Shown: positions 5,033 to 25,708 of the stretch, piece after piece
Position numbering within the stretch: the first letter of the stretch is position 1
How the letters are laid out: each line of letters opens with the position of its first letter
Made by a program: the position numbers and the translations under genes
Source: Patescibacteria group bacterium
Lineage (GTDB): Bacteria; Patescibacteriota; Microgenomatia; Levybacterales; UBA12049
DNA length: 37,252 nucleotides
Assembly: GCA_038058335.1 (NCBI GenBank)
Contig: JBBUBI010000028.1
Coordinates: forward strand, 1 to 37,252
Direction of reading: 5' to 3'
The notes under the pieces: generated by a model
What the model saw: only the letters and a program-made list of their open reading frames with translations
What the model was told of the DNA's origin: nothing
The model's database searches: none

Positions 5033-6081
5033 AAACAGAAAATATCACATTATCAAATAACGATCAATTAAATCTAATTAGTACATTTTCTACATTGATC
5101 AATGCAGGAATTCCTATTCTGGAAACAGTAGAATCTCTCCTAGAAGGCTCCAAGGGAAACATGAGAAAAATCCTAGAGTCAACGAGTGAAGATCTTGTTC
5201 AAGGAAAACCTCTTCATGTGTGTTTTTCAAAATTTCCTGGAGTTTTCGGAAAAGTAACGATAAATATTATTAAAGCTTCTGAAGAGGCGGGAACGCTTGA
5301 TGTAATACTAAAAGACTTGAGGAATCAGGTCCAGAAAGACATGGAATTTGTCGACAGAATAAAATCCGTCCTAATGTATCCGCTTATTATTTTGATAGTT
5401 TTTTTGGGCGTACTCCTTGTAATTCTTGTCGTAGTAATTCCAAAAATCGCTATTGTATTTGCGCAACTGAAGGCCGAGCTTCCTCTACCCACAAAAATTA
5501 TGATTTTTGCATCCAATGCAATCCTACACAACACAATTCCACTTATAGCTATACTTATAGCTTTAGGTGTTGGTTTCTATTTCTCATACAAAGTCCAGAG
5601 AGCAACAGTTCTCCGCGTGCTTTACTCACTTCCAATTGTTTCAACTATCGTTAAGGAGATTGATCTGACGCGATTTTTCAGGAGTATGTATCTATTGCTT
5701 AACTCAGGAATTATTATTACATCAGCCTTAGAGCTAGCAAAAGACGTAGTAATGCGAAAAGACATAGCACAATCAATAGCCTATGCGCAAGAATCTGTCC
5801 TGGCAGGCCGAAGACTCTCGGACGCATTCAAAGACAAAAAGCATCTTTACTCGGGCATCATGATCAAGATCATTGAAGCAGGGGAGAAAACAGGAACTCT
5901 AGACAAATCCATGCAAGACATGTCTGACTATATGGATTATCAAGTCTCAGGCATGCTCAAGACCCTTACCAGTCTTCTCGAACCAATAATGCTTGTTCTT
6001 ATGGCAACTTTGGTAGGGGGGATGATGATGTCAATTATCTCGCCTATTTACGGGATGATCAGCAATGTAGGCGGTAGATAA
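5029..6081 (+). CDS. pilC: type IV pilus inner-membrane platform protein (PilC/GspF family)
   Basis: 350 aa with two GspF-like repeats and three TM segments. ATGA overlap with pilB. Confidence 0.88.
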   Translation: MKTENITLSNNDQLNLISTFSTLINAGIPILETVESLLEGSKGNMRKILESTSEDLVQGKPLHVCFSKFPGVFGKVTINIIKASEEAGTLDVILKDLRNQVQKDMEFVDRIKSVLMYPLIILIVFLGVLLVILVVVIPKIAIVFAQLKAELPLPTKIMIFASNAILHNTIPLIAILIALGVGFYFSYKVQRATVLRVLYSLPIVSTIVKEIDLTRFFRSMYLLLNSGIIITSALELAKDVVMRKDIAQSIAYAQESVLAGRRLSDAFKDKKHLYSGIMIKIIEAGEKTGTLDKSMQDMSDYMDYQVSGMLKTLTSLLEPIMLVLMATLVGGMMMSIISPIYGMISNVGGR

Positions 6082-6083
6082 AA

Positions 6084-6575
6084 GTGAAAAAAACAATTGA
6101 ATCACAGCATGGAACTTCGCTTCTTGAACTCATTATGTTCATGGCTATTGGCTTACTTCTATTCGGATTTGTGACATTTAATTTTGTAAGCTTTCAACAA
6201 AAAACTTCTATTTCCACCTCTATTGACACCCTAATCTCAGATTTCAGCAGTCAACAAACAAAAGCAATGATCGGCGCAGAAAGCAGCGGCACGGGGAATA
6301 GTTACGGAGTATATTTTCAATCAGATAGATATATCCTTTTTGCAGGCTCTGCTTATTCCGGTGCAAATCCAACTAATTTTACTGTGATGCTGGATCCAAA
6401 CATAATTTTTACTGATATTACTTTTCCCGGAAGCGTATTGATTTTTTCACAATTATCAGGTGAAATAGCCGGATTTGCAGACGGAAGTAACACAATCGCA
6501 TTGCAAAGCTCACAGGGATCTGAAAAAAAAACACTTACAATTAATAAATACGGTGTGATAACTGAAATAAATTAA
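6084..6575 (+). CDS. prepilin-type minor pilin / pseudopilin
   Basis: GTG start. Class III signal ...SQHG|TSLLELIMFMAIGLLL with Glu at +5. Confidence 0.75.
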   Translation: MKKTIESQHGTSLLELIMFMAIGLLLFGFVTFNFVSFQQKTSISTSIDTLISDFSSQQTKAMIGAESSGTGNSYGVYFQSDRYILFAGSAYSGANPTNFTVMLDPNIIFTDITFPGSVLIFSQLSGEIAGFADGSNTIALQSSQGSEKKTLTINKYGVITEIN

Positions 6576-6577
6576 AT

Positions 6578-9484
6578 ATGAAAAATGGCCAATCTTTAGT
6601 TGAGCTACTGCTTGCAATAGCTCTTCTTGCAATTATTTTGCCTGGAATTTTAGTAGGATTTTTTGCAACTCGAGGCGGCAGAGCAACTCAAGACCAAAGA
6701 CAGCAGGCAACTGCTTATTTATACGAAGCTCAGGAGGCGATGCGCGTAATCAAAGCGAATGGATGGTCAAATTTATCAACCGGAACATATCATCCGATAC
6801 CAGCTGGAAATTCTTGGTCTCTTGCTAGCAGCTCTGAGCTTATCGATAATAATTTCACCCGTCAGATTGTTATTAGCGATATCTACAGAGACGCAAATGG
6901 CGATGTTGTTTCTCAGGGAGGAACAATTGATCCTTCGATAAAGCTTGCTGACATTACTGTTTCTTGGTCAAATCCATTTCCTGTGTCTGTAAATTCAAAA
7001 ACTTTTCTTACCCGCAACTCAAACAAAGCATTCTCAGAAACTACAGAGACAGATTTTAATGCAGGAACGCTTAGTCAAACACAAGTAACGAATGTCTCCG
7101 GCGGAGAAATAAAACTCGCAAATAATAATAAAGGTAAATGGTGTACTCCTGCTTTCTCAAGTGCCGCAATCGATTTGCCCGATGGGCCTCCGGTTGCCGT
7201 TGCTGCAACTGCGAGTACTGTATCAATAGATAATCCTAATGATGTTTTTGCTGCTGTTGCTCCGAGTGACGCTACTTCAACCAAGCTGGCTTATATCGCC
7301 GTAACGGCTAATGCAGATCCGCCCGTGCCAACTTTAAGAGGTACGTTCACTTTGGATCCGGCAAAGTACAGCTCACCATCTCTAGTTCCTTCAAATATTG
7401 GACTTGATAACAATTTTAAAACAAATGACGTTAAATATTATATTTCCCCCTCGGGAAAACTATACGCACTTCTTGCAACAAATAAACCTGATCGTGAAGT
7501 TATTGCAATTCAAATAAATGATGGAACTTCGGACTCTTTTCAGGATCCAACAAATAAAATCTACAAATACTGGACTTTTTTTGACACGAAGATATATGGC
7601 ACGGCTTTTAATAGTCCCAGCGCTAATTCCGCTGAAACCAGCAGCGCCGGAGACAATAATGGATTCCAAACTAGTCCTGCAAATGCCTATACCAATGATG
7701 GCTTATTTGCGGCTGATGCCAATAGCGGTAATAATACGGGTACCAGCTGCACAGGCATCGATAAAGACAAGCATCGCTATTATAATTATGGTTTTTCACT
7801 TCCAGCAGGCGCAACGATTAACGGTATTGAAATGAATTTAGTCGCTAAGGCGAACAGCACATCAGGTACTCCAAAAATGTGTGTAGAGCTCTCCTGGAAC
7901 GGCGGAACAACGTGGGCCACGGCAAAATCCACAAATAATCTAACCACCAGTTCGGCAAGTTATACCCTGGGCGGACCAACCGATACATGGGGACGGACGT
8001 GGAGCGATACAGACTTCACCGATTCCAATTTTAGAGTACGTGTTATAAATGTTGCCAGTAATACATCGCGTACTTTCTCATTAGATTATGCAGGAATAAA
8101 GGTGTATTACAACGGAATTTCTTCTGGTTCCAACGATCAGGCACCTTATGATTATGGAGCTCCAACTATTAATGTATTAGGGAATACGGGATATGCAGCG
8201 TCGGGTGGATATTTATATGTATTTGATTTAACCAACATTGATAGTAAGTCAGCAAGCAATGGGCTGGATCAGCTTGGCTGTCGAATTCAGCTGGACGGTT
8301 TTGACTGTAAGGCTGATCAAGGTGGTAAAAAATACAACGCAGGCCAAACCGGTACTACATGGAGTAATACGTCAGGTTCGATTCATCCTGATTGTTCAGA
8401 TGGAGGAAATATTGAGCTATATGCAACAAATGATATTTTTCCGGTACAATCGGAAAGCAGTACCTATATTTTTACGGCTATTGGTGGAATCACAAATCCG
8501 GAATTCGAAATAGTTAATACTACAAATGTTCCGAACGGCTCATCAAACCCTTCCATAAGCAGCTCCTCCTGCGGCAGAATATCCGGAGGAAATGCGGGCT
8601 GGAAAGTAATCAGTTCTTATGATTTCAATTCAGTCAGCTCAACAGAAGAAGCCGCAAATTCTATATTTGCCAATGGAGACGGTACGAGAGCTTATATCTC
8701 ATCAAACGGAGGAATTGACGGAGACGGAAACGGCCAGCCGGATAGCAAACAATATTATATTCTTAATACAACCAATAAAAGCAGTCCCGCCTTTCTTTCG
8801 GGTTCACCTTCTACTGGTCCATCAAGCGGATATTATAATTCCTCTGGAGCAAATGGCGAATTATATCCAAGGCGGGCAATGACTGTACAGAATGGAGTAC
8901 GGGCTGTATTGGTGGGAAAAGACGGAATTTCAAACGGCAATGATGCGGAAGAATATCAAGTCTTAGACAGCACGACAGAAGCAACTCCTACTTACTGCGG
9001 GGGACTTAATTACGATATCGGCTTCAATGACCTTACTTCTGTTTCAGAGCTCGATGGAGACAATTATGTTTATATGGTTGCGAATACAGCAGCAAATGAG
9101 CTTAAGATTATTCAAGGAGGTCCGGACAATGCCATATTTGTCCCATCCGGAACATTTGAATCTCAAGTCCTTTCTGCAGCCTCAGAAGCAATGTTTAATC
9201 GGTTCAATGTAAACGCCACGACTATGCCGCAAACAACTCTTACCTATCAAGTTGCGATAGCCAAAGCCATTAATAATAGCTGTTCTGGTGTTTCCTATTC
9301 TTATGTTGGACCGGATGGAACCTCGGGCACATATTTTACAACAAGCAGTGTATTGCCCGTAAGTACGAGCCCGACAGGCTATCAAAATCCAGGACAATGC
9401 GTAAGATATAAGACATATATGACTTCTGCCGATCAATTGCTGACACCAATTCTCTACGATATTTATTTTAATTATTCACCATGA
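6578..9484 (+). CDS. giant (968 aa) prepilin-like protein; candidate pilus-tip adhesin
   Basis: N-terminus MKNG|QSLVELLLAIALLAIILPG has a prepilin cleavage motif with Glu at +5. The rest is rich in Ser/Thr/Asn/Gly with scattered Cys, consistent with an extracellular beta-rich protein. Confidence 0.75.
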   Translation: MKNGQSLVELLLAIALLAIILPGILVGFFATRGGRATQDQRQQATAYLYEAQEAMRVIKANGWSNLSTGTYHPIPAGNSWSLASSSELIDNNFTRQIVISDIYRDANGDVVSQGGTIDPSIKLADITVSWSNPFPVSVNSKTFLTRNSNKAFSETTETDFNAGTLSQTQVTNVSGGEIKLANNNKGKWCTPAFSSAAIDLPDGPPVAVAATASTVSIDNPNDVFAAVAPSDATSTKLAYIAVTANADPPVPTLRGTFTLDPAKYSSPSLVPSNIGLDNNFKTNDVKYYISPSGKLYALLATNKPDREVIAIQINDGTSDSFQDPTNKIYKYWTFFDTKIYGTAFNSPSANSAETSSAGDNNGFQTSPANAYTNDGLFAADANSGNNTGTSCTGIDKDKHRYYNYGFSLPAGATINGIEMNLVAKANSTSGTPKMCVELSWNGGTTWATAKSTNNLTTSSASYTLGGPTDTWGRTWSDTDFTDSNFRVRVINVASNTSRTFSLDYAGIKVYYNGISSGSNDQAPYDYGAPTINVLGNTGYAASGGYLYVFDLTNIDSKSASNGLDQLGCRIQLDGFDCKADQGGKKYNAGQTGTTWSNTSGSIHPDCSDGGNIELYATNDIFPVQSESSTYIFTAIGGITNPEFEIVNTTNVPNGSSNPSISSSSCGRISGGNAGWKVISSYDFNSVSSTEEAANSIFANGDGTRAYISSNGGIDGDGNGQPDSKQYYILNTTNKSSPAFLSGSPSTGPSSGYYNSSGANGELYPRRAMTVQNGVRAVLVGKDGISNGNDAEEYQVLDSTTEATPTYCGGLNYDIGFNDLTSVSELDGDNYVYMVANTAANELKIIQGGPDNAIFVPSGTFESQVLSAASEAMFNRFNVNATTMPQTTLTYQVAIAKAINNSCSGVSYSYVGPDGTSGTYFTTSSVLPVSTSPTGYQNPGQCVRYKTYMTSADQLLTPILYDIYFNYSP

Positions 9485-10011
9485 CTTTATTTTCTAAATT
9501 AACCAGCAAGAAGGGAAGACGTGGATCTACTCTCATAGAGCTTTTACTATACATCGGGATTTTTTCAATTCTTACAGCCGTACTTTTTCAATTTTTTGGG
9601 ACTATCATCGATACACAGCTTGAATCACAAAGTACTTCATCAGTTCTATTGGATGGACAGTATGCTCTTAACCGATTTAATTATGATATTAAGCGGGCAG
9701 ATAGTATCATTTCACCTGCGATTGGAGAACAATCTTCAACGCTACAGCTATCCATCGACAGCATCACATATACGTATACCCTGATTGATGGAGATATTAC
9801 AATTGCAAGTAGTGGGACTCAGACCACGGACCAACTAAACAGCGTGAATACCAACTCTTCTAATCTCAGCTTTACTCATCTTGGAGATACTCAGAGCGGA
9901 AATGTTGAGACCATAACCATATCATTTACACTTGCAAGCGATATTGCCAACCGGGGGAATCCGGAAGCAAGAAATTATAAATCAACATTTGGTATTCGTC
10001 CAAGACAATAA
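9481..10011 (+). CDS. prepilin-type minor pilin
   Basis: ...KKGRRG|STLIELLLYIGIFSILTAVLF with Glu at +5. ATGA overlap with the preceding gene. Confidence 0.75.
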   Translation: MTLFSKLTSKKGRRGSTLIELLLYIGIFSILTAVLFQFFGTIIDTQLESQSTSSVLLDGQYALNRFNYDIKRADSIISPAIGEQSSTLQLSIDSITYTYTLIDGDITIASSGTQTTDQLNSVNTNSSNLSFTHLGDTQSGNVETITISFTLASDIANRGNPEARNYKSTFGIRPRQ

Positions 10012-10016
10012 GAAAT

Positions 10017-10400
10017 ATGCTAAATCAATTAATTAATTTAAGAAATTCCAAAGGACAAGCGCTCGTAACATTGCTGTTTTTTGTAATTATTGGTATAACA
10101 ATAATATCGGCAGAAGCAATCGTTCTTTACACAAACATCCTTTCTGCAAGCACGGCAGAGCAGGGAATGGATGCATATTATCTTGCAGAAAGCGGTATTG
10201 AAGAAGGATTAATTCGTTTAATTCGCGATCCAAGTTATAGTGGGGGATCGCTTACTGTTGGCTCAGGAACCGTTGACATACAAGTTGCAAGTGGGATAAT
10301 TACGGCAACTGGCACATTCCATAATGCCATCAGGAAAATTCAGGTAACAACGGCGAACATTAATGGTGCGATAGCGGTCGATTCCTGGGAGGAAATTTAA
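10017..10400 (+). CDS. PilX/GspK-like minor pilin lacking Glu+5
   Basis: ...NSKG|QALVTLLFFVIIGITII: hydrophobic pilin-like N-terminus with Thr instead of Glu at +5. Confidence 0.6.
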   Translation: MLNQLINLRNSKGQALVTLLFFVIIGITIISAEAIVLYTNILSASTAEQGMDAYYLAESGIEEGLIRLIRDPSYSGGSLTVGSGTVDIQVASGIITATGTFHNAIRKIQVTTANINGAIAVDSWEEI

Positions 10401-10401
10401 A

Positions 10402-11223
10402 ATGAATTCTTTAAATAAACAAACCATAGTTTGCTATATTGACAGCAGTAAAATTCTTTTTTATCTGGGCATGACTGGCGCGATACTTCAGCTTGACTTT
10501 CCACCGGAGGTTCTATCGTACATGGATCTTCTCCGCAAGGATAAATTTGAGCAGCTTATTGAAGTCTTTCTTCAACAAAACAAATTGGCTGGAGGCAATT
10601 GCATTATAATTTATTCTGCTAATTCATCCTTTGATAAAGATTTTGCGGAAAATGAATCCGGAAAGGATGATGCTGAAATACAGAAATTTATCGATATAGT
10701 TCCTTTCGAAGATGTCTTAAGTAAAGCTTACAAGCTAAACAAGAAAACAAAAGTTGTTGCTATAAACAATCGAATAAATGAGTCAATTAGATTTGTTCTG
10801 GAGAGAAACAAATTCCTTATTCACGCTATAATTCCGGTATCAATTCTTCAAGAAACTTTTCCAGAATTAAAAACGAACATTGACTTAGGATTTATATCTA
10901 GTAAGGCAGACTCGATAAAACAATTTAGTATTATAAGCGGCAGCGTAACTAATAGTAGTTTGACAGTTGAAAAGAAACCTGAATCAAAAGAAAAAAATAA
11001 GAGACCTTATGTGTTAGGAGGTGTATTCGGTGCCCTTCTTGTTATTTTAATCATAGTTATTGTAGCCAATCTCTCACAACCTCCTCCAAAAAAGCCTTCA
11101 GGAATAATTGGTTCACCACCACCACAGACACCAAGACCTGTAATAGAAGAAACATCCAGAAATGAGAACCCACCTGTGATAATGGAAACATCCTCAACCC
11201 CAAGTGGTGCTATAAATCAGTGA
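10402..11223 (+). CDS. bitopic membrane protein in the pilus operon (possible assembly component), with a Pro-rich C-terminal tail
   Basis: 273 aa, single TM VLGGVFGALLVILIIVIVANL near residue 205, then PPPKKPSGIIGSPPPQTPRPV.... SD GGGAGGAAA upstream. Any function is inferred from operon position only. Confidence 0.55.
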   Translation: MNSLNKQTIVCYIDSSKILFYLGMTGAILQLDFPPEVLSYMDLLRKDKFEQLIEVFLQQNKLAGGNCIIIYSANSSFDKDFAENESGKDDAEIQKFIDIVPFEDVLSKAYKLNKKTKVVAINNRINESIRFVLERNKFLIHAIIPVSILQETFPELKTNIDLGFISSKADSIKQFSIISGSVTNSSLTVEKKPESKEKNKRPYVLGGVFGALLVILIIVIVANLSQPPPKKPSGIIGSPPPQTPRPVIEETSRNENPPVIMETSSTPSGAINQ

Positions 11224-11255
11224 TTAAAAATCGAATCTAGCCTCAAAATTGCCTA

Positions 11256-11285
11256 TTGACAAGATGTTTTAATTATGTGAATAAT
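11256..11285 (+). promoter_or_regulatory. sigma70-like promoter of pilin copy 1 (TTGACA-N18-AATAAT)
   Basis: TTGACA at 11256..11261 and AATAAT at 11280..11285. Only 10 nt separate the -10 box from the ATG, with no SD. Confidence 0.55.
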
Positions 11286-11295
11286 TAATACATAC

Positions 11296-11802
11296 ATGAA
11301 AACAAATCTGCCCAGATTAGTTAAGACTCAATCTTCAAAAGGTTTTACTCTTATTGAGCTTCTCGTCGTTATCGGTATCCTAGCAATTCTTCTCTCGATC
11401 GTTCTTATCGCCATTAACCCAGCAAGACAATTTGGTCAGGCAAATGACACAAAAAGACAAAGTGCTGTAACTCAAATACTTAATGCAGTCGGAGCATATC
11501 ATGCTGATAATAAGGGGCAATTGCCACTTAATATTCCAGTATCACCAGCAGCAGCAGCACAAATAGCATGGGACGGTGTTACACCAAATGCACCAGGTAA
11601 TATCTGCGCTGCTCTATTGGGAACTGCTGGTGATGGATATATCCCTGCTCTACCAGTAGATCCAACACTTACTGGAGGAGACATTACTAATTGCGCAGCT
11701 TTATATGCTACTGGATACTTTATAGTGCAGGATGCAAACGGAAGAGTAACGGTATCAGCTCCAAGCTCAGAAGTTACCACTCCAATTACGATAACCCGAT
11801 AA
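11296..11802 (+). CDS. type IV major pilin, copy 1
   Basis: ...SSKG|FTLIELLVVIGILAILLSIVLIAINP, a canonical class III signal and alpha-1 helix. Two Cys (NICAAL...TNCAAL) could form a C-terminal disulfide loop. Confidence 0.9.
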   Translation: MKTNLPRLVKTQSSKGFTLIELLVVIGILAILLSIVLIAINPARQFGQANDTKRQSAVTQILNAVGAYHADNKGQLPLNIPVSPAAAAQIAWDGVTPNAPGNICAALLGTAGDGYIPALPVDPTLTGGDITNCAALYATGYFIVQDANGRVTVSAPSSEVTTPITITR

Positions 11803-11818
11803 TTTACACATACAATCT

Positions 11819-12049
11819 ATGGCAGTAAAAAAATCGTCTGAACATTCTAAGGGCAAGCATCACGAACACAATCTGAAAGCTTTAACTTCATTTATGGTAT
11901 TAGCAATTGGCTTCGGAGTCTTTTTTCTTTTCTACCAAAATCAAGAAAATCTTACAGACCCATCTATTGTTAAGCAATTCATATTACTCGTAATTGTGCT
12001 ATCAGCGTTTTTATTTGGTCTATTATATCTTCTCAATCCTAAAAAATAG
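11819..12049 (+). CDS. small two-TM membrane protein downstream of the pilin
   Basis: 76-aa ORF with two hydrophobic segments. A truncated remnant of it follows pilin copy 2. Confidence 0.55.
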   Translation: MAVKKSSEHSKGKHHEHNLKALTSFMVLAIGFGVFFLFYQNQENLTDPSIVKQFILLVIVLSAFLFGLLYLLNPKK

Positions 12050-12187
12050 TTTATGTAGGATTAGCTCCTTTGTGATTATTTTTCTAAGTTATTACCATAG
12101 AAACTAATGTAATTTATATTTAAAAATAAAATATTTAATTAAAATTTTCCAACTACCTATTCCCTAATCTAGCCTCAAAATTGCCTA

Positions 12188-12217
12188 TTGACAAGATGTT
12201 TTAATTATGTGAATAAT
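12188..12217 (+). promoter_or_regulatory. sigma70-like promoter of pilin copy 2
   Basis: Identical TTGACA-N18-AATAAT element, duplicated with the cassette. Confidence 0.55.
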
Positions 12218-12227
12218 TAATACATAC

Positions 12228-12740
12228 ATGAAAAGAAATCTGCCCAGATTAGTTAAGACTCAATCTTCAAAGGGTTTTACATTAATTGAACTTCTAGTCG
12301 TAATCGGAATTTTAGCAATCCTTCTCTCTATTGTTCTTATAGCCATTAACCCAGCAAGACAATTTGGTCAGGCAAATGACACAAAAAGACAAAGCGCTGT
12401 AACTCAAATACTTAATGCAGTCGGAGCATATCATGCTGATAATAAAGGGCAATTGCCACCTAATATTCCAGTAGGAGTCGTTGGAACCAATGAGGTTCAA
12501 ATCGCATGGGATGGTATTACTGCAAATGCACCAGGTAATATTTGCTCTGCTCTATTGGGAACTGCTGGTGATGGATATATCCCTGCTCTACCAGTAGATC
12601 CAACGCTTACTGGAGGAGACATTACTAATTGCTCAATTGCATATGCTACTGGATACTTTATAGTACAGGATGCAAACGGAAGAGTAACAGTAATTGCTCC
12701 AAGCTCAGAAGTTACCACTCCAATTCAAATAACCAGATAA
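12228..12740 (+). CDS. type IV major pilin, copy 2 (variant central region)
   Basis: The N-terminal ~77 aa are almost identical to copy 1. The central segment differs (PNIPVGVVGTNEVQIAWDGITANA vs LNIPVSPAAAAQIAWDGVTPNA). Confidence 0.9.
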   Translation: MKRNLPRLVKTQSSKGFTLIELLVVIGILAILLSIVLIAINPARQFGQANDTKRQSAVTQILNAVGAYHADNKGQLPPNIPVGVVGTNEVQIAWDGITANAPGNICSALLGTAGDGYIPALPVDPTLTGGDITNCSIAYATGYFIVQDANGRVTVIAPSSEVTTPIQITR

Positions 12741-14838: not shown

Positions 14839-14928
14839 ATTAAAGTTATCTTAATGTTAAAAGATAAACTCAGTCAATTATGCAAATAATAATCAAAAGA
14901 TATCAGTCTAGACCAATTTAAAAAAATG

Positions 14929-15000
14929 AGCGGGAAACGGGGATCGAACCCGCGACCTTCTCGTTGGCAACGAGACGCTCTACCACTGAGCTACTCCCGC
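14929..15000 (-). tRNA. tRNA-Gly(GCC)
   Basis: Reverse complement GCGGGAGTAGCTCAGTGGTAGAGCG TCTCG TTGCCAA CGAGA AGGTC GCGGGTTCGATCCCCGT TTCCCGC T folds as a cloverleaf with U73. No CCA encoded. Confidence 0.9.
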
Positions 15001-15093
15001 ACTTCGTCACTTCGTTCCTCAGTGCAAGCTTTTTATAATAACACAATTGCTTATTCTGAGCAAAATCAGTTTACCCTGAGCAAAGTGAATGAG

Positions 15094-15166
15094 TGCCGAG
15101 AGTGTGAGTCGAACACACATGGCCTGTTCTTCAGACAGGTGCCTTGACCACCTTGGCTATCTCGGC
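15094..15166 (-). tRNA. tRNA-Phe(GAA)
   Basis: Reverse complement GCCGAGA TA GCCAAGGTGGTCAAGGC A CCTGT CTGAAGA ACAGG CCAT GTGTG TTCGACT CACAC TCTCGGC A. Atypical D-arm. No CCA encoded. Confidence 0.8.
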
Positions 15167-15192
15167 TTGCTTGCATTTCATTTGTCAAAATG

Positions 15193-15265
15193 TGGGCGAT
15201 GCAGGTCTCGAACCCGCGACATTTGCGATGTAAACGCAACGCTCTACCAACTGAGCTAATCGCCC
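15193..15265 (-). tRNA. tRNA-Val(TAC)
   Basis: Reverse complement GGGCGAT TA GCTCAGTTGGTAGAGC G TTGCG TTTACAT CGCAA ATGTC GCGGG TTCGAGA CCTGC ATCGCCC A. No CCA encoded. Confidence 0.9.
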
Positions 15266-15288
15266 TTAACTATAACATAGAGTGTTTG

Positions 15289-15375
15289 TACCGAGGACAG
15301 GACTTGAACCTGCACGCCTTATTTAAGGGCACAAGAACCTCAATCTTGCGTGTCTACCAATTTCACCACCTCGGC
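15289..15375 (-). tRNA. tRNA-Leu(GAG)
   Basis: Reverse complement GCCGAGGTGGTGAAATTGGTAGACACG CAAGA TTGAGGT TCTTG with a long variable arm, then GCAGGTTCAAGTCCTGT CCTCGGT A. No CCA encoded. Confidence 0.88.
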
Positions 15376-15384
15376 AGGATAAAC

Positions 15385-15393
15385 ATTATAGCA
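15385..15393 (-). promoter_or_regulatory. extended -10 box (TGCTATAAT) inside the tRNA array, upstream of tRNA-Leu(GAG)
   Basis: Minus-strand TGCTATAAT. The predicted start is about 3 nt upstream of the mature 5' end at 15375. It overlaps a perfect 15-nt palindrome, tagcaaaatttgcta (15389..15403). Confidence 0.4.
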
Positions 15394-15408
15394 AAATTTG
15401 CTAAATTG

Positions 15409-15491
15409 TGCCCGAGGGGAGACTTGAACTCCCATGCTCTTGCGAGCACTAACTCCTGAAGCTAGCGCGTCTACCGTTTCGCCACCCGGGC
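15409..15491 (-). tRNA. tRNA-Leu(CAG)
   Basis: Reverse complement GCCCGGGTGGCGAAACGGTAGACGCG CTAGC TTCAGGA GTTAG with a long variable arm, then GGGAGTTCAAGTCTCCC CTCGGGC A. No CCA encoded. A TGATAAAAT box lies about 20 nt upstream. Confidence 0.88.
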
Positions 15492-16936: not shown

Positions 16937-17021
16937 GCGGATGTGGCGGAATTGGCAGACGCGCATGGTTTAGGACCATGTGGGGTAACCCTTGGAGGTT
17001 CAAGTCCTCTCATCCGCACCA
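16937..17021 (+). tRNA. tRNA-Leu(TAG) with encoded CCA
   Basis: GCGGATGTGGCGGAATTGGCAGACGCG CATGG TTTAGGA CCATG with a long variable arm, then GGAGGTTCAAGTCCTCT CATCCGC A CCA. TATAAT at 16922..16927 puts the predicted start about 3 nt upstream. Confidence 0.9.
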
Positions 17022-20815: not shown

Positions 20816-21457
20816 ATGAATACTCCTATCAAAACAAAGAAAAAGCAAGGTTTCGCAAATCAAAATCCTCTTGAAATAGTAAAAGGGCTTGGCTCAAGTG
20901 TGGCAAGCTCGTTTGTTGACGATCTAGGAAAAGGAGGCATTAACAATGCCTGGAATGACCTCCTGGGAATAGGGGAGAGGGGAGAATCTCAAAACAAATT
21001 CAGCGGTGACCTCTCAGAAGGACAAGAGCTCAAATTGAACAAAAAAGATAAAAAATCTGAGCACAATACAGCAGCGCCTGCGATAGACTATCACAGAGAA
21101 ATTGCCGAATCGGACAGAATTGCATCAAATGAAAATCAACAGGTAATGCAATCCCAAATTCAGGAGATTCTATTTGAGCTTAAAAAAATAACCGAAGCCT
21201 CAGCAGAAATGGCTATGGAATTTAAGGAAGTTACTATAGAGCAACGGATCGAAAATCCAGGTGAGTATCATGTAAACTTTTTCCAATGGATGCTGTCAGT
21301 CGTAAGAGCTGCAAGAGCAAAAATAGAAGATTCAGGCGCTTGGCTTAATACAATGAAGAGTAAGAAGGGACAAAGAAATTATTGGTCAATGTTTAAGAAA
21401 CACGGAACTACTTTTGGACTTTCAAATGAGCGCGTCGTGGCTACTCAGGCAGGATAA
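20816..21457 (+). CDS. hypothetical protein
   Basis: 213-aa ORF with no motif I recognise. A TAAGCT box ends 6 nt upstream of the ATG. Confidence 0.55.
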   Translation: MNTPIKTKKKQGFANQNPLEIVKGLGSSVASSFVDDLGKGGINNAWNDLLGIGERGESQNKFSGDLSEGQELKLNKKDKKSEHNTAAPAIDYHREIAESDRIASNENQQVMQSQIQEILFELKKITEASAEMAMEFKEVTIEQRIENPGEYHVNFFQWMLSVVRAARAKIEDSGAWLNTMKSKKGQRNYWSMFKKHGTTFGLSNERVVATQAG

Positions 21458-21495
21458 ATCCTCTTAACCGAATTCCATGGAAGATCCAACTGGCC

Positions 21496-23028
21496 TCAGC
21501 TAGTTGTTTGTAAATCGAAGTAACTAACTGCTTCGTGAGTAGATAGATCTTTGCGAATTTCCAGAACTTGCTCAGGAGTTAACGACTCAATTTCCTCTTT
21601 GGACAAACCCTGCTCAACCATCTCCCGAGCTATAAAAGACATAATTCCTGACTTAACCTGACTGTAGTCTTTATCCCCGAATTTTTTCTCAAAATATGAA
21701 ATAGCAAGATCAAAATATCCTTTTTTGGCTAGGCGTTTAATACCATCCTCATATAATTCGTAAGACGTCCCAAAAAAATCATCGATCTCATCATAATCCT
21801 CATGAAATCTATCAATCGCATTAAAAGCCTCTACATATCCGTGTTCACCGACAAGTCCTACGTCTTCTACCGCATCAGAAATAGCGAATAGAATTTCTGC
21901 TTTTTGATCGTCCTCCAACTCGGAGAAAGCATTTCTTGTATCGAGCATAATCCCAGAATTTTCTCCTAATTTTCCAGATTTTTTCATCGCAATAAAGATA
22001 GAGGGATATATTTTTTCATAAAACTCGTCATCGTAGATTTCTGGAATTTCTGATATTTTATCAATTGTTGGTTGGGGATTTATTCCCTCATCCGCTTCTT
22101 TAACTGCCTTTGCCGCAAGTGCCTGTGCATACGCTATTTTAGAGCTCATTGCCCACGCAGTTTTTGCTGCGCCTTCTATATTACCCAGGTTAATCTGTTC
22201 ATCGAATACCTTCCCTAATGTTTCCCTGATTTCTCTATACTTATAATCCATTCTTATTTTCCAAGGAATATTTTTATCAGACGCAGAACCACTTTCTAAA
22301 TCAAACTGATTAATTAATCTTACAGCATCATCAAGATATCCACAGGAAATATAAGCTTCTGCCAATTGTTTCTGAACACTATTATCGCTCGTGCCCCATT
22401 GTCGTATTCCCTCTGCTTTTCTTATTTCTTCTTCTGCCTTTTCAAATGCGATTCCTGGATTAAGGTTTGCTTTGTGTAAAACTCTTGCAATTCTTCCATA
22501 CTGTATAACTTTCAGAAAAAAATTATTGCCGTCGCGGGGAATATTCTTCGAAATTCTATCCATTGCTTCTTCCAAAATTTGCGTAGGATTTTCTCCTTGG
22601 CTTATTAAGGTCTCTCCCGCATATATATACGCTGATGTTGCCCAAAGTGAGTCGTCTGATTCGGGACGAGGAAGAAGCCCCCTCATTTCATCAAAATCTC
22701 CCAACATTCCATAAACGTTTGCTAAGCTTATACTTGCGCTGTCTTGATATCTTCTTTCATTAGGCAATTTATCCTTAGCCCTAATCATAGGTTCAAGTAC
22801 TGATTCCGGAGATATACTTACTTCTGTCATATTCCCTGCTACTTCTAGCAAAGCATTTATTGCCTCATCTATTCTTGTCGTTTCAGCAACTCCTATTGCC
22901 TTTTGAAACAGAACTCTCCCTTTGTGAGCAAGGATTATTCTTTCGGCTAGGGTCGGCTCTGGAGAGATCCTTTGAGAAGTTTCTAAAATACCAATTATGG
23001 GAATGCGTCTATCTGCCTCTTGGCTCAT
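21496..23028 (-). CDS. hypothetical acidic, all-helical (repeat-like) cytoplasmic protein
   Basis: 510-aa ORF with no TM segment and no recognisable catalytic motif. Confidence 0.6.
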   Translation of the reverse strand: MSQEADRRIPIIGILETSQRISPEPTLAERIILAHKGRVLFQKAIGVAETTRIDEAINALLEVAGNMTEVSISPESVLEPMIRAKDKLPNERRYQDSASISLANVYGMLGDFDEMRGLLPRPESDDSLWATSAYIYAGETLISQGENPTQILEEAMDRISKNIPRDGNNFFLKVIQYGRIARVLHKANLNPGIAFEKAEEEIRKAEGIRQWGTSDNSVQKQLAEAYISCGYLDDAVRLINQFDLESGSASDKNIPWKIRMDYKYREIRETLGKVFDEQINLGNIEGAAKTAWAMSSKIAYAQALAAKAVKEADEGINPQPTIDKISEIPEIYDDEFYEKIYPSIFIAMKKSGKLGENSGIMLDTRNAFSELEDDQKAEILFAISDAVEDVGLVGEHGYVEAFNAIDRFHEDYDEIDDFFGTSYELYEDGIKRLAKKGYFDLAISYFEKKFGDKDYSQVKSGIMSFIAREMVEQGLSKEEIESLTPEQVLEIRKDLSTHEAVSYFDLQTTS

Positions 23029-23036
23029 TCCTAATC

Positions 23037-23064
23037 ATTATAATTTAATATTTGCTTTTGTCAA
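23037..23064 (-). promoter_or_regulatory. near-consensus promoter TTGACA-N16-TATAAT for the 510-aa gene
   Basis: Minus strand: TTGACA at 23064..23059 and TATAAT at 23042..23037, with 8 nt to the ATG at 23028. Confidence 0.55.
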
Positions 23065-23096
23065 ATTGAAAAAATGTTGTTTTAACAAAAGTATTT

Positions 23097-23105
23097 TGTT
23101 AAAAT
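23097..23105 (+). promoter_or_regulatory. extended -10 box (TGTTAAAAT) for the nested tRNA locus
   Basis: TAAAAT at 23100..23105. The predicted start near 23112 is 2 nt upstream of the outer tRNA-like 5' end at 23114. Confidence 0.45.
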
Positions 23106-23113
23106 CTCTAAGC

Positions 23114-23314
23114 GGATCCATAGCTCAGTTGGAACGGAAGTTTTCAAACTGAGTTCGCTTGCTTGACAAGCGTGGAGAGAGCGTTGCATAAATTTGGAGC
23201 TGTAGCTCAGTTGGTTAGAGCGCTTCATTGACATTGAAGAGGTCACAGGTTCGAATCCTGTCAGCTCCACTGACATTGCAAAGGTCAGTGGTTCGAATCC
23301 ACTTGGATCCACCA
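23114..23314 (+). tRNA. interrupted tRNA-Val(GAC)-like gene (outer) with encoded CCA
   Basis: - 5' half: GGATCCA TA GCTC [52-nt D-loop] GAGC G TTGCA, ending at 23188.
- Insert: 81 nt (23189..23269).
- 3' half: CTGACAT TGCAA AGGTC AGTGG TTCGAAT CCACT TGGATCC A CCA (23270..23314).
- All four stems are fully complementary across the interruption. Confidence 0.5.
23196..23269 (+). tRNA. tRNA-Val(GAC), intact (inner)
   Basis: GGAGCTG TA GCTC AGTTGGTTA GAGC G CTTCA TTGACAT TGAAG AGGTC ACAGG TTCGAAT CCTGT CAGCTCC A: 74 nt, canonical cloverleaf, no CCA encoded. Confidence 0.92.
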
Positions 23315-23421
23315 TAAACTCCGAGGTTTCCTAGGTGTCGATATAAATCCACCTCCCAGGTGGGATTGGTCATAATCCGGAATGTGATTCTAGCAAAACA
23401 TCTAGCTAATTACAATTTCTT

Positions 23422-23430
23422 TGATATACT
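23422..23430 (+). promoter_or_regulatory. extended -10 box (TGATATACT); leaderless geometry for the 23437 ORF
   Basis: Same 9-mer as upstream of tyrS. 6 nt to the G of GTG at 23437. Confidence 0.4.
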
Positions 23431-23436
23431 ATAGCT

Positions 23437-23667
23437 GTGACTAGATTTCAGCAGGCTACTAAAGCAGTCAGAGATATATTGATCAATAATTTTCTCGGAG
23501 GCCTTGCATGGGCAGTAGGAGTAACAATAGGATTTTCCCTTATTATTTTTCTTCTTACAACTGTACTTAAGAACGTAAATTGGATTCCCTTCATAGGCGA
23601 TTTTCTATCAAATCTCACAAGCTATGTACTTTCAAATTTACAAACCAATCCTCAATTGGTAAAATAG
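23437..23667 (+). CDS. small two-TM membrane protein
   Basis: 76-aa ORF with a GTG start and two hydrophobic segments. Confidence 0.5.
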   Translation: MTRFQQATKAVRDILINNFLGGLAWAVGVTIGFSLIIFLLTTVLKNVNWIPFIGDFLSNLTSYVLSNLQTNPQLVK

Positions 23668-23675
23668 TCCCTCAT

Positions 23676-24890
23676 ATGGATAATTCGAAAAATCATCAGC
23701 AGATAGGAAAAGAACAAGATCTATTTACATTCTCTGATCTCGTAGGCTCCGGACTTCCTCTTTTTACACCCAAGGGCACAGTTCTCAAGCGAGTTTTGAA
23801 TACATACATAGATGATCTTCTGCAGAAAGAAGGGTACCAATTTGTGTCTATTCCTCATATCGCAAAAAAAGATTTGTATGAGAAGTCCGGACATCTTGAG
23901 AAATTCTCAGAAGATATGTTTCCCGTGATGAAGGCAAAAGGCAGAGAGTATATGCTAAAACCCGCAAATTGCCCGCACCACATTCAGATTTTTGCCCGAA
24001 AACCATGGTCATATAGAGATATGCCCCAAAGATACGCTGAAAGCACCACTCAGTACAGATCAGAACTCTCAGGCGAGCTTGAGGGACTTGCAAGAGTACT
24101 TTCGCTGACACTCGATGACTCGCATGTGTTTGCAAGGCCTGATCAAGTGCGAGAGGAGTTCAGAAAAGCACTAAGCCTAAACCAGCAGATGCTGAAGGAT
24201 TTCAAGCTTGAAAATTGGATAAGACTCTCAGCTTGGGATCCGAAGGATAAAGCAAAATACTTGGGAGATGAAAAAACCTGGGAGGAAATGCAAAGCCTTA
24301 TGGAAGATATACTTAAAGAACTTAAGATAAATTACAAAAAAGTAGAAGGAGAAGCAGCCTTTTACGGACCCAAGATGGATCTTATGATCACAGACTCTCT
24401 AGGCAAGGAATGGCAGCTTTCAACTATCCAGGTTGATTTCAACCTTCCTGCAAGATTTGAACTTTCCTACGTAGATGAAAATGGTCAGGATCAAAGACCG
24501 GTAATGCTTCATAGAGCAACCTTTGGATCATACGAAAGATTCCTTGCAATGATAATTGAGCATTTTCAAGGAGCTTTTCCGCTTTGGCTCTCTCCAGTAC
24601 AAGCAGTGATTCTTCCGATTGCAGACAGACATGCCGAGAAAGCAAACGAGATCAAAGATACGCTTTTGGAAGCAGGGATTCGGGTTGAGGCAGACAGCAG
24701 ATCAGAAACTCTTCAATCAAAAATTCGGCAGGTGTCTTTACAAAAAGTGCCCTACATGGGTATAATAGGGGACAAAGAAATTGAAACTAAAAGCCTATCT
24801 ATCCGCACGAGGGATGGAAAAGATCTAGGACAATTAGAAATTTCTAAGTTTCTTAATTTAATTAAAGAAGAAATTGATAAAAAGACATAA
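23676..24890 (+). CDS. thrS: threonyl-tRNA synthetase, catalytic plus anticodon-binding domains only
   Basis: From ATG 23676: MDNSKNHQQIGKEQDLFTF... aligns with the start of the class II core of bacterial ThrRS. Zn ligand contexts CPHH, DDSH and LHRA are present. The ORF-track start at 23580 overlaps the upstream gene. A TGGTAAAAT box lies 10 nt upstream of the ATG. Confidence 0.88.
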   Translation: MDNSKNHQQIGKEQDLFTFSDLVGSGLPLFTPKGTVLKRVLNTYIDDLLQKEGYQFVSIPHIAKKDLYEKSGHLEKFSEDMFPVMKAKGREYMLKPANCPHHIQIFARKPWSYRDMPQRYAESTTQYRSELSGELEGLARVLSLTLDDSHVFARPDQVREEFRKALSLNQQMLKDFKLENWIRLSAWDPKDKAKYLGDEKTWEEMQSLMEDILKELKINYKKVEGEAAFYGPKMDLMITDSLGKEWQLSTIQVDFNLPARFELSYVDENGQDQRPVMLHRATFGSYERFLAMIIEHFQGAFPLWLSPVQAVILPIADRHAEKANEIKDTLLEAGIRVEADSRSETLQSKIRQVSLQKVPYMGIIGDKEIETKSLSIRTRDGKDLGQLEISKFLNLIKEEIDKKT

Positions 24891-25491
24891 AAGAAAGCCG
24901 GACAACAGAAAGTTTTACAGAATAAACGAGCGAATATTTGCCAATACAATGCGGGTATTGGGTCCGGATGGAAAACAAATAGGTATACTCAGCAAGTATG
25001 AAGCTCTGAAAAGAGCAAAAGAAGAAAACCTAGATCTCGTAGAAATTGCACCTTCGGCGACTCCTCCAGTCGCAAAGATAATTGACTTTAATAAGTTCAT
25101 GTATCAGGAGGAAAAACGCAAGAAAGAAGAGAAGAAAAAGTCCAGCAAATCCGGGACAAAAGAGTTAAGGCTTGGACCATTTATGGACGACAATGACCTG
25201 ATGGTGATCGTCAGAAGGGCCCGGGAGCTTTTGGGCGATGGAAATAAGATCAAATTTGTGGTAAAATTCGCAGGTAGGCAAATCACTCACCCTGAATTCG
25301 GTGAGGAGGTTTTGGGAAAAGCAATAAATGAACTTTCAGATGTATCAAAAATTGAAAGAGAAAAGCGTTTTGAAGGAAGACAGCTTATTGCTATAATTTC
25401 TCCAGGAGGAAAAAGCCCAAAGCCTACAGATAAAAAAGAGGATCTAAATAATAAGAATGCCAAAGAAGAAAATAAAGAAATCAGTCAGTAG
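24874..25491 (+). CDS. infC: translation initiation factor IF-3 with a non-AUG start and a Lys-rich C-terminal tail
   Basis: ...YRINERIFANTMRVLGPDGKQIGILSKYEALKRAKEENLDLVEI...PPVAKIIDFNKFMYQ.... No in-frame ATG lies upstream of the conserved RINE motif. Candidate starts are TTG 24874 or ATA 24877. Confidence 0.88.
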   Translation: MIKRHKRKPDNRKFYRINERIFANTMRVLGPDGKQIGILSKYEALKRAKEENLDLVEIAPSATPPVAKIIDFNKFMYQEEKRKKEEKKKSSKSGTKELRLGPFMDDNDLMVIVRRARELLGDGNKIKFVVKFAGRQITHPEFGEEVLGKAINELSDVSKIEREKRFEGRQLIAIISPGGKSPKPTDKKEDLNNKNAKEENKEISQ

Positions 25492-25654
25492 AAGATTTAA
25501 GGTTACCAAAAATGGTAAAGTTATGTTTTCTCATCAGTACAAAAGCCATCTTAAACTTAATAAGTCCAAGAGAAGATTGAGAAGACAGAAAGAACCAGGT
25601 CAATTGACTGGAAAATTTGCAAAGAAAATAAAACAGATGTTAGGAGAAGCATAG
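25457..25654 (+). CDS. rpmI: ribosomal protein L35
   Basis: MPKKKIKKSVSRRFKVTKNGKV.... Overlaps the infC tail by 35 nt. Confidence 0.9.
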   Translation: MPKKKIKKSVSRRFKVTKNGKVMFSHQYKSHLKLNKSKRRLRRQKEPGQLTGKFAKKIKQMLGEA

Positions 25655-25708
25655 GACAGAGTATAGTAAATAGAGTTTAGAAAATAGTTCAACTAAACGC
25701 TAATAAAT

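Follow-up and report, generated by a model that had tools for sequence, protein, structure and literature searches.

An intact tRNA-Val(GAC) gene nested inside an interrupted tRNA-Val(GAC) gene in a groundwater Patescibacteria genome, with similar nestings in related bacteria

We describe herein a transfer RNA (tRNA) locus on contig JBBUBI010000028.1 of assembly GCA_038058335.1, a stretch of 37,252 nt which is called the window in the following, and which comes from a Levybacteria-like genome of the Patescibacteria (Candidate Phyla Radiation, CPR) in groundwater well H52 of the Hainich. As listed in Table 1, an intact tRNA-Val(GAC) gene is located within a second tRNA-Val(GAC)-like gene, whose two halves flank it directly and whose D-loop bears a further insert. 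An earlier reading of the bare letters, hereafter the sequence-only reading, had proposed this nesting, and it is borne out both by direct reading and by the programs used here. In fact the inner gene matches the tRNA model RF00005 with 77.8 bits (E = 1.3e-15, full model 1-71, gathering threshold 29 bits) and is called tRNA-Val(GAC) by ARAGORN, and it is presumably the working gene.

As encoded, the outer gene is seen neither by Rfam, where it gives no RF00005 match even at E <= 10, nor by ARAGORN. If only the inner insert is deleted, the intron-free mode of ARAGORN still calls no tRNA and the intron mode gives a poorer alternative fold; if both inserts are deleted in silico, a check which the sequence-only reading had proposed, a 77-nt tRNA-Val(GAC) with CCA is called, in which 21/21 stem pairs are formed. 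The stems of the inner gene (GGAGCTG/CAGCTCC, CTTCA/TGAAG and ACAGG/CCTGT) differ from those of the outer gene in a compensated manner, and 17/74 positions differ in total. The earlier claims that the outer stems are complete and compensated, and that an att-type duplication of the inner 3' half does not account for the outer gene, are confirmed by these results. A tandem duplication was also considered as the origin of the nesting and was rejected in view of the same 17/74 differences with compensated stems, and since two separate duplications would be required. Retro-insertion of a mature tRNA was rejected likewise, for the inner gene carries no CCA and the C after its A73 is common to nearly all tRNA genes here. 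As for the other tRNA genes of the window, CCA is not encoded in 5/6 of them (spans 14928-15491 and 16937-17021), therefore CCA addition must operate in this organism; the inner gene (23196-23270) and these 5/6 genes have the discriminator base, then C, then a non-CCA sequence, and the full CCA is encoded by tRNA-Leu(TAG) and the outer tRNA-Val only.

The two interruptions of the outer gene can be delimited as follows. The sequence-only reading had placed the junction of the inner insertion at 31/32, which holds as one of two readings: the 81-nt insertion is ambiguous by one base, and 32/33 is equally possible, as TTGCA T/AAATTT...CCAC/TGACAT with slashes at the junctions. With the latter, the loop becomes TTGACAT as in all relatives, and C23270 falls to the trailer of the inner gene; a C in this position follows nearly all tRNA genes here. 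The expanded D-loop of 52 nt with its CGCTTG/CAAGCG hairpin had also been recognized; the hairpin stands, while the expansion is amended to a discrete insert of 43 nt, whose boundary is ambiguous by 4 nt owing to a flanking TGGA repeat.

Table 1. Features of the nested tRNA-Val(GAC) locus in the window, nested loci in related genomes (labelled L; ThrRS, threonyl-tRNA synthetase, with its identity to that of the window) and copies of the palindromic insert family
Feature	Position	Strand	Remark
Extended -10 promoter element (TGTTAAAAT)	23097..23105	+	read directly; predicted to drive the whole nested unit
Outer tRNA-Val(GAC), 5' half	23114-23188	+	GGATCCA TA GCTC (52-nt D-loop) GAGC G TTGCA
Outer tRNA, first piece	23114..23132	+	acceptor 5' strand GGATCCA, TA, D-stem 5' strand GCTC, D-loop start AGTTGG
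Structured insert in outer D-loop, 43 nt	23133..23175	+	two hairpins: hairpin 1, AGTTT/AAACT, 23139-23150; hairpin 2, CGCTTG/CAAGCG, 23156-23172
Outer tRNA, second piece	23176..23188	+	D-loop end AGA, D-stem 3' strand GAGC, G26, anticodon-stem 5' strand TTGCA
Spacer TAAATTT	23189..23195	+	read directly; T23189 equally readable as outer nucleotide 32
Inner intact tRNA-Val(GAC), 74 nt, without encoded CCA	23196..23269	+	RF00005 and ARAGORN
Outer tRNA, 3' half	23270..23314	+	anticodon loop CTGACAT, TGCAA, variable loop AGGTC, T-arm AGTGG TTCGAAT CCACT, TGGATCC, A73, encoded CCA
Relic promoter TTGTAA-17-TAGAAT with TG	23387..23415	-	promoter scan; comparison with L166, L169, L171
Nested locus in L166	inner gene at 31/32	opposite to window	ThrRS 85%; same D-loop insert as window
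Nested locus in L170	inner gene at 23/24		ThrRS 83%; 20-nt palindrome CCTGCCTGCCGGCAGGCAGG at 31/32; related 41-nt palindrome in T-loop
Nested locus in L089	inner gene at 23/24		ThrRS 79%; outer gene decayed
Nested locus in L055	inner gene at 31/32		ThrRS 80%; two further inserts
Nested locus in L099	inner gene at 31/x		ThrRS 75%; 11-bp inverted repeat around inner gene
Nested locus in L014 (same as L102)	inner gene at 37/38		ThrRS 71%; 21-nt T-loop insert
Palindrome copy	L167:6733-6752		
Palindrome copy	L170:4044-4064		
Palindrome copy	L169:2733-2770		intergenic
Palindrome copies	L170:53-72 and 98-138		e.g. CCTGCCTGCCGGCAGGCAGG

From the position of the extended -10 element, transcription should start a few bases 5' of 23114, and TGnTAnAAT elements are located about 10 nt upstream of tRNA-Val in other relatives as well. 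A simple promoter scan detects no promoter-like site between 23114 and 23196, therefore the inner gene must be expressed from the promoter of the resident gene.

It could be suspected that two co-existing tRNA-Val(GAC) alleles were merged by the assembler into an apparent nesting, and in fact the Logan contigs of several relatives break in or beside the tRNA locus, where shared k-mers are hard to assemble. Against this suspicion, the junctions GTTGCATAAATTTGGAGCTG and GCTCCACTGACATTGC as well as the D-loop insert are foreign to both allele types; three ENA assemblies of replicate samples agree on the locus letter for letter; the D-loop insert is carried exactly by two Logan contigs; and the co-occurring strain L176, which is 98.65% identical overall, shows zero differences within the nested locus. 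Moreover the sister genome L166, although diverged, has a homologous nested arrangement, and analogous ones occur in six other genomes from different studies. Hence we regard an assembly artefact as next to impossible.

Between L176 and the window positions 21176-25695, 61 differences are counted. The DUF5665 gene, 231 nt long and 15% divergent, accounts for 35 of them, and the 2.2 kb upstream for only one. The former look like a recombination patch acquired from a diverged relative, which starts 130 nt downstream of the nested locus; the differences of L176 are confined to such patches outside the locus. As for the contig breaks, the Logan short-read contigs of L166, L170, L171-L174, L004 and L005, which come from several studies, end within or beside the tRNA-Val(GAC) locus. 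A nested or duplicated tRNA sequence may explain these breaks, in which case such loci would be under-represented in assemblies.

The origin of the two genes can be traced by comparison with thrS-linked loci taken from GTDB genomes, metagenomes, and Logan and ENA assemblies, about 45 of which are Levybacteria-like. The close relative L086/L167, with a ThrRS identity of 84%, shares the extended -10 element and leader ttttgttaaaatctcttagc with the window and has behind them a tRNA-Val(GAC) of the GGATCCA type, uninterrupted and with CCA, and in L169 and L177 the outer-type gene is uninterrupted on the other strand; the alignment of the orthologous locus, which the sequence-only reading had recommended, thus yields uninterrupted outer-type genes behind the same promoter in L086, L169 and L177. 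The first piece of the outer gene is identical in L166 and in the uninterrupted genes of L086 and L177, the outer halves are 90% (5') and 88% (3') identical to the intact L086 gene, and the spliced outer sequence agrees with L177 at 70/74 positions, with L169 at 69/74, and with its own inner gene at 57/74. The inner gene, on the other side, is 73/74 identical to the tRNA-Val(GAC) of L010, the ThrRS of which is only 74% identical, and its type (GGAGYTG...ACAGG/CCTGT) is the inner gene also in L089, L166 and L170. By these similarities the outer gene is the orthologue of the resident gene that is intact elsewhere, and the inner gene is a member of a different sequence lineage. In L175 the GGAGYTG type is the sole gene and stands behind the promoter and leader cctattttggtagaattgtaaagctt that the outer type uses in L087, L090 and L093, therefore the two allele types replace one another at orthologous sites.

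Mixed genes are observed too. The L086 tRNA (1547-1623) has acceptor and T stems as in the window outer gene and an anticodon stem CTTCA/TGAAG as in the window inner gene, while L166 shows the converse mixing of allele parts. This suggests gene conversion between the allele types, or a nested locus that collapsed into a chimera.

Nesting is not confined to the window, as shown by six further loci in Table 1, and inner and outer genes point in the same direction in all nested cases. With tandem and fragmented arrangements included, seven other related loci are of this kind. In the ThrRS tree the window and L166 are sisters, and the nested loci are interspersed among un-nested ones; for example L170 is very close to the un-nested L169 (ThrRS 95.6% identical). 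On this tree at least five separate events or transfers of nesting appear to be needed. The insertion site is shared beyond close relatives, as 31/32 is used by the inner gene in window/L166, L055 and L099, that is in three or four lineages, and by the palindrome of L170, whereas 23/24 is used in L089 and L170. Such a hotspot at 31/32 suggests site-specific targeting; no enzyme for it was found among these loci, and the sole candidate is the GIY-YIG reading frame of L010/L096 described below.

The fate of the outer gene differs among the nested loci. All pairs are kept (21/21) in the window and in L014. In L089 there remain 18/21 pairs, G18 is altered besides the substitution G10A, and the anticodon stem, TTATA/TTCAG, no longer pairs properly; in L055 the D-stem 3' strand is lost; and in L099 both the anticodon loop and the anticodon-stem 3' strand are missing. 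The sequence-only reading had held that decay of the outer stems without compensation would speak for a pseudogene, and decay of this kind is what L089, L055 and L099 display.

The D-loop insert of the window can also be followed in relatives. It recurs in L166, where GGC/GCC stands in place of hairpin 1 and everything else is unchanged. In L055, an insert in the variable loop has both ends and the 12-mer GAGTTCGCYTGC in common with that of the window. By a rough estimate, fewer than one exact match of this 12-mer is expected by chance across all loci, and the L055 insert is probably a relative of the 43-nt insert. Hairpin 1 changes in sequence and is kept as a hairpin in the window, L166 and L055. 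Beyond these nested cases, no further copy of the 43-nt insert was found in the window or the other loci by exact-motif search (165 loci) and blastn-short (about 180).

Another family of inserts, GC-rich and with the pattern CCTGCC(C/T)GCC...GGC(A/G)GGC(A/G)GG, occurs in relatives. It is found in pheS of L167 and L170 as in-frame insertions of 18-21 nt (6-7 codons) at two different sites, which are absent from sister genomes and from the window. In L089, L170 and L014 the inner tRNA is located between the two arms of such a palindromic element. By their distribution these palindromes appear to be mobile mini-elements, because they are present at pheS, intergenic and tRNA sites and yet absent from sister genomes. 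The 81-nt and 43-nt inserts of the window are devoid of CCTGCC...GGCAGG arms, and no other copy of them was found in the window and the comparison loci. Viral contigs scanned for the inner 3' half and the palindrome gave no match, and there was no sign of phage origin in them. Taken together, nesting seems to be more general than a single window, recurring across the clade with small mobile elements involved.

Two other loci are worth describing beside the nested ones. At L010:2660-3083 (same as L096:475-895), a degenerate tRNA of 44 bits with a 6-bp anticodon stem and a 6-nt loop is followed in tandem, 10 nt after it, by a tRNA-Val(GAC) of the invading type, and an open reading frame (ORF) for an 86-aa GIY-YIG protein (PF01541) starts two nt after the call of the latter (2746-2820). 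The tRNA and this ORF possibly constitute a homing-type module; tblastn with the GIY-YIG protein, aimed at the surroundings of other tRNA-Val loci, matched L010/L096 and an unrelated L018 copy only. At L040:2012-2304 (ThrRS 46%), two truncated 5' halves GGATCCGTAGCTCAGTGG precede an intact tRNA-Val(CAC); they bear D-loop inserts of 65 and 84 nt with 72% GC, and no matching 3' half is in sight. This locus belongs to a different Patescibacteria metagenome-assembled genome, the isolate name of which, H52-bin113, points to the same Hainich well. Finally, a generic search for interrupted tRNAs across all loci returned tRNA-Val(GAC) cases only, a result with little bearing on other tRNAs as the loci were chosen around thrS.

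We therefore come to the interpretation of the locus, and favour, with a probability of roughly 0.65, that in the outer gene we see the resident tRNA-Val(GAC) gene, disrupted and now hosting and expressing its own replacement, its halves having become leader and trailer. In such a course of events, a 43-bp hairpin element would have entered the outer D-loop, and another insertion, 81 bp long and placed where the anticodon loop begins on its 5' side, would have brought a short A/T spacer with a complete tRNA-Val(GAC). One transcript would then span the outer 5' half, the inner tRNA and the outer 3' half; RNase P would cut at 23195/23196 and an RNase Z-type activity at 23269/23270, after A73; the CCA-adding enzyme would complete the inner tRNA, which would decode, and the outer halves would be discarded as leader and trailer by-products without being rejoined. 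In the clade as a whole, the tRNA-Val(GAC) gene would have been invaded repeatedly by small mobile DNA, and the insertion would be tolerated as it brings its own replacement tRNA, oriented with the resident promoter. Perhaps recombination within the flanking tRNA 'exons' also carries it from one allele to another, and the type IV pilus genes of the window could conceivably serve DNA uptake for this. After invasion the outer gene would decay at rates specific to each lineage, the window copy being one that has not yet decayed. The sequence-only reading had listed a very recent pseudogene among its possibilities; a disrupted pseudogene is indeed best supported, but 'very recent' is doubtful, because both insertions are shared with L166, with which the four-fold sites of thrS are only 44.5% identical.

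We further consider, more tentatively, that the inner gene belongs to a selfish, homing-like lineage of tRNA-Val(GAC) cassettes, which would invade the resident isoacceptor gene of Levybacteria at 31/32 and 23/24 as preferred sites, sometimes between palindrome arms, would borrow the host promoter, would do without splicing as they bring along the very function that is lost, and would spread from genome to genome via the 'exons'. This extension is possible, although we would not bet on it. If it is true, the outer halves of the window, being still intact, would mark an invasion of recent date, and the cassette would represent a new class of mobile elements with a tRNA as the only cargo.

Several observations weigh against the replacement explanation and have to be set beside it. 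The outer stems consist of standard pairs throughout, there is no disruptive substitution, and A73 and CCA are retained; the insertions into outer genes are not placed at random, most of them being within loops or at their borders, and a structure under selection would give the same pattern; and no mobility enzyme was found, with integrase, homing endonuclease, RNA ligase and splicing endonuclease all lacking among the 33 ORFs of the window searched against Pfam. The comparison with L166 bears on the same question. Since the L166 contig ends inside the inner tRNA, the comparison of units covers the outer 5' half and the 5' part of the inner gene, and while the above identity at four-fold sites of thrS is near saturation, the outer 5' half, except for hairpin 1 of the D-loop insert, is identical save three substitutions in the anticodon-stem 5' strand. 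Three identical blocks can be delimited: one of 25 nt, which covers the outer acceptor strand and the 5' part of the D-arm and runs 6 nt into the D-loop insert; one of 33 nt with hairpin 2 and the D-stem 3' strand; and one of 27 nt with the inner 5' part apart from position 7. The changes are confined to three dense patches, namely hairpin 1, the outer anticodon-stem strand with the spacer (TGATTA in L166 at the site of TAAATTT), and the inner anticodon stem. Such conservation indicates either purifying selection on the outer RNA or a recent lateral spread of the unit. We favour the latter, because scattered changes are lacking, the unit lies in different contexts, and the distribution of tRNA-Val allele types disagrees with the ThrRS tree. 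In fact the nested unit is behind an L086-type promoter in the window and behind an L169/L171-type promoter on the other strand in L166, and this difference in promoter and orientation indicates movement of the unit.

If selection were nevertheless acting, the outer halves might be kept as a tRNA-shaped clamp of leader and trailer which never decodes and yet has a selective value, for example by protecting the precursor, by guiding or ordering the cuts of RNase P and RNase Z, or by providing a stable CCA-ended 3' fragment. A processing scaffold of this sort had been named by the sequence-only reading, and part of the evidence would suit it: in the predicted minimum-free-energy fold of the 219-nt transcript the inner cloverleaf coexists with the acceptor, anticodon and T stems of the outer gene, the outer halves are predicted to co-fold still through the acceptor stem once the inner tRNA is removed, the blocks shared with L166 persist despite near-saturated synonymous divergence, and hairpin 1 stays a hairpin while its sequence changes. 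However, an un-nested gene behind the same promoters suffices in L086, L169, L175 and L177, the loss of outer pairing is tolerated in the nested L089, L055 and L099, the patchy differences from L166 fit a recent common ancestry of the unit better than long-term selection, and the change of promoter and orientation speaks for movement; a clamp is thus rather unlikely in our estimation. Less likely still is an outer gene that works as a tRNA itself, in which RNase P and RNase Z would set the inner tRNA free like an 'intron' that excises itself, the insert in the D-loop would be removed or tolerated, and the pieces would be ligated or used as a two-piece tRNA; such a gene would be the bacterial equivalent of the multi-intron and split tRNAs of archaea. 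It is true that stems, A73 and CCA are intact, that the exons rebuild a tRNA accepted by ARAGORN, that the 5' exon is conserved with respect to L166, that inserts avoid the stems for the most part, and that the outer exons of L170 are exact around three inserts. But the last point is explained by recency, as the close relative L169 is uninterrupted; the outer copies of L089, L055 and L099 are clearly dead; and with an intact tRNA of the same anticodon present, the outer one is not needed. Moreover, the pieces cut by RNase P and RNase Z would present a 3'-OH end that still bears a tail of 6-7 nt, and a 5'-phosphate end, and we know of no bacterial pathway that trims and joins such ends in tRNA. 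In the predicted fold neither insert shows a bulge-helix-bulge, a motif in which a 4-bp helix separates two 3-nt bulges: the inner tRNA branches directly from the outer anticodon stem via the unpaired TAAATTT without an exon-intron helix, and the D-loop insert folds as two simple hairpins. Rfam, searched with gathering and permissive thresholds in the window and six nested or tandem loci, gave matches to intact tRNAs only and none to ribozyme, intron or tmRNA families, and the window has no ligase or endonuclease gene, so that the split or intron-like tRNA envisaged in the sequence-only reading finds no support here.

The surroundings of the locus are bacterial, with genes for trigger factor, DUF5660, DUF5665, thrS, infC, rplT, pheST, a penicillin-binding protein and type IV pilus proteins, and an archaeal origin of the window was ruled out by such neighbours (trigger factor, initiation factor 3, penicillin-binding protein). 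Among the nearest ThrRS proteins, those with a named source bear the label Levybacteria or Patescibacteria. Between the DUF5660 gene and the tRNA promoter there is a 510-aa ORF (21496-23028, minus strand) without significant match to a Pfam family, which has a perfect TTGACA/TATAAT promoter at 23037-23064; relatives have other cargo in its position, e.g. a toxin-antitoxin pair in L086. Judging from this cargo, which differs among relatives between tRNA-Val and thrS, the tRNA-Val neighbourhood seems to be a variable hotspot. Downstream of the nested locus, the relic promoter of Table 1 has its homologue in L166, L169 and L171, where a tRNA-Val(GAC) on the minus strand is driven by it; in the window no tRNA follows the relic, which suggests that a second tRNA-Val position was lost or relocated. 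Farther away, at 3350-12740, a cluster encodes T2SSE (type II/IV secretion ATPase), the T2SSF platform protein and several pseudopilin-like ORFs with N-methyl motifs. It may represent a type IV pilus or a DNA-uptake apparatus, and may be relevant to the lateral spread of tRNA alleles.

If the replacement explanation is right, a tRNA gene has been taken over from inside and a tRNA-shaped shell is left around its successor, and such shells could be mistaken in annotation for split or intron-containing bacterial tRNAs. The recurrence in at least five lineages at preferred sites would point to an unrecognised mechanism of targeting or recombination, and as the palindromes occur also in pheS, a new type of tRNA-carrying mini-element may be involved in CPR bacteria. 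Full-text literature searches returned no description of nested tRNA genes in bacteria or CPR, which agrees with the impression of the sequence-only reading that the architecture is undescribed in bacteria. To our knowledge the disruption of tRNA genes has so far been studied almost only in archaea, and the present locus with its relatives offers a natural series for following it. Should the outer RNA turn out to be functional instead, it would be the first bacterial split tRNA.

It is instructive to compare the locus with known systems. The disrupted tRNAs of archaea and red algae include those with multiple introns as well as split and permuted ones, and their bulge-helix-bulge motifs are processed by EndA and RtcB. 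The locus resembles them in that insertions are at the D-loop, 31/32, 37/38 and the T-loop, that the exons rebuild a cloverleaf, and that the inserts behave as mobile. It is unlike them in having a bacterial host, no bulge-helix-bulge and no EndA or RtcB among the 33 window ORFs compared with Pfam, and also in that one 'intron' is a tRNA of the same anticodon and the exons decay in relatives. A group I intron was excluded, for a core of about 200 nt or more is expected whereas the insert is 81 nt and a tRNA, and no Intron_gpI match was obtained in the window and six related loci.

The tRNA punctuation of polycistronic transcripts, and the C/D box RNA inside the haloarchaeal tRNA-Trp intron, provide a second comparison. 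In a similar way RNase P and RNase Z, guided by the embedded tRNA, would cut the flanking RNA free, and one RNA gene is nested in another; the difference is that the flanking RNA here is a tRNA of the same anticodon, with no indication of use.

With regard to mobile DNA, Rickettsia palindromic elements insert in-frame into protein-coding genes, and the palindromes of the relatives, located in-frame in pheS, in intergenic DNA and in outer tRNAs, are comparable to them and to the repetitive extragenic palindromic (REP) sequences, REP doublets (REPINs) and miniature inverted-repeat transposable elements (MITEs). The window inserts are unlike these elements in having no arms, and no transposase was identified; we know of no description of a tRNA gene as the centre of a palindromic mini-element. 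Homing offers another, possible parallel, as SegB of phage T4 is a free-standing homing endonuclease that drives the inheritance of a tRNA gene region. As might be expected in homing, the allele type is swapped precisely behind unchanged flanks (L175 versus L087), insertions favour a single phosphodiester bond (31/32), the resident promoter in front of the nested unit is not the same in the window as in L166, and a GIY-YIG gene lies beside the invading type in L010. Unlike homing, there is no endonuclease gene at or near the window locus, and the GIY-YIG protein of L010 is a bare 86-aa catalytic domain.

A further similarity is with integrative elements that target tRNA genes as attB sites and restore them, since in both cases mobile DNA enters a tRNA gene and makes good the function which it abolishes, the old fragments remain alongside, and, in the window, the surroundings form a variable hotspot. 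The differences are that the insertion here is of 81 bp and essentially a whole tRNA gene with both old halves directly flanking it, and that integrase, element body and direct repeat of a 3' tRNA segment are absent from the window locus, where the T and acceptor stems of the outer 3' half are unlike those of the inner one in sequence. At the tRNA-Thr locus of Caldiarchaeum, a mobile element displaced the 5' tRNA fragment and brought a new copy (PMC3293823). Altogether, on the favoured explanation, the present case would belong with the known disruption of tRNA genes by mobile DNA that is accompanied by a functional replacement.

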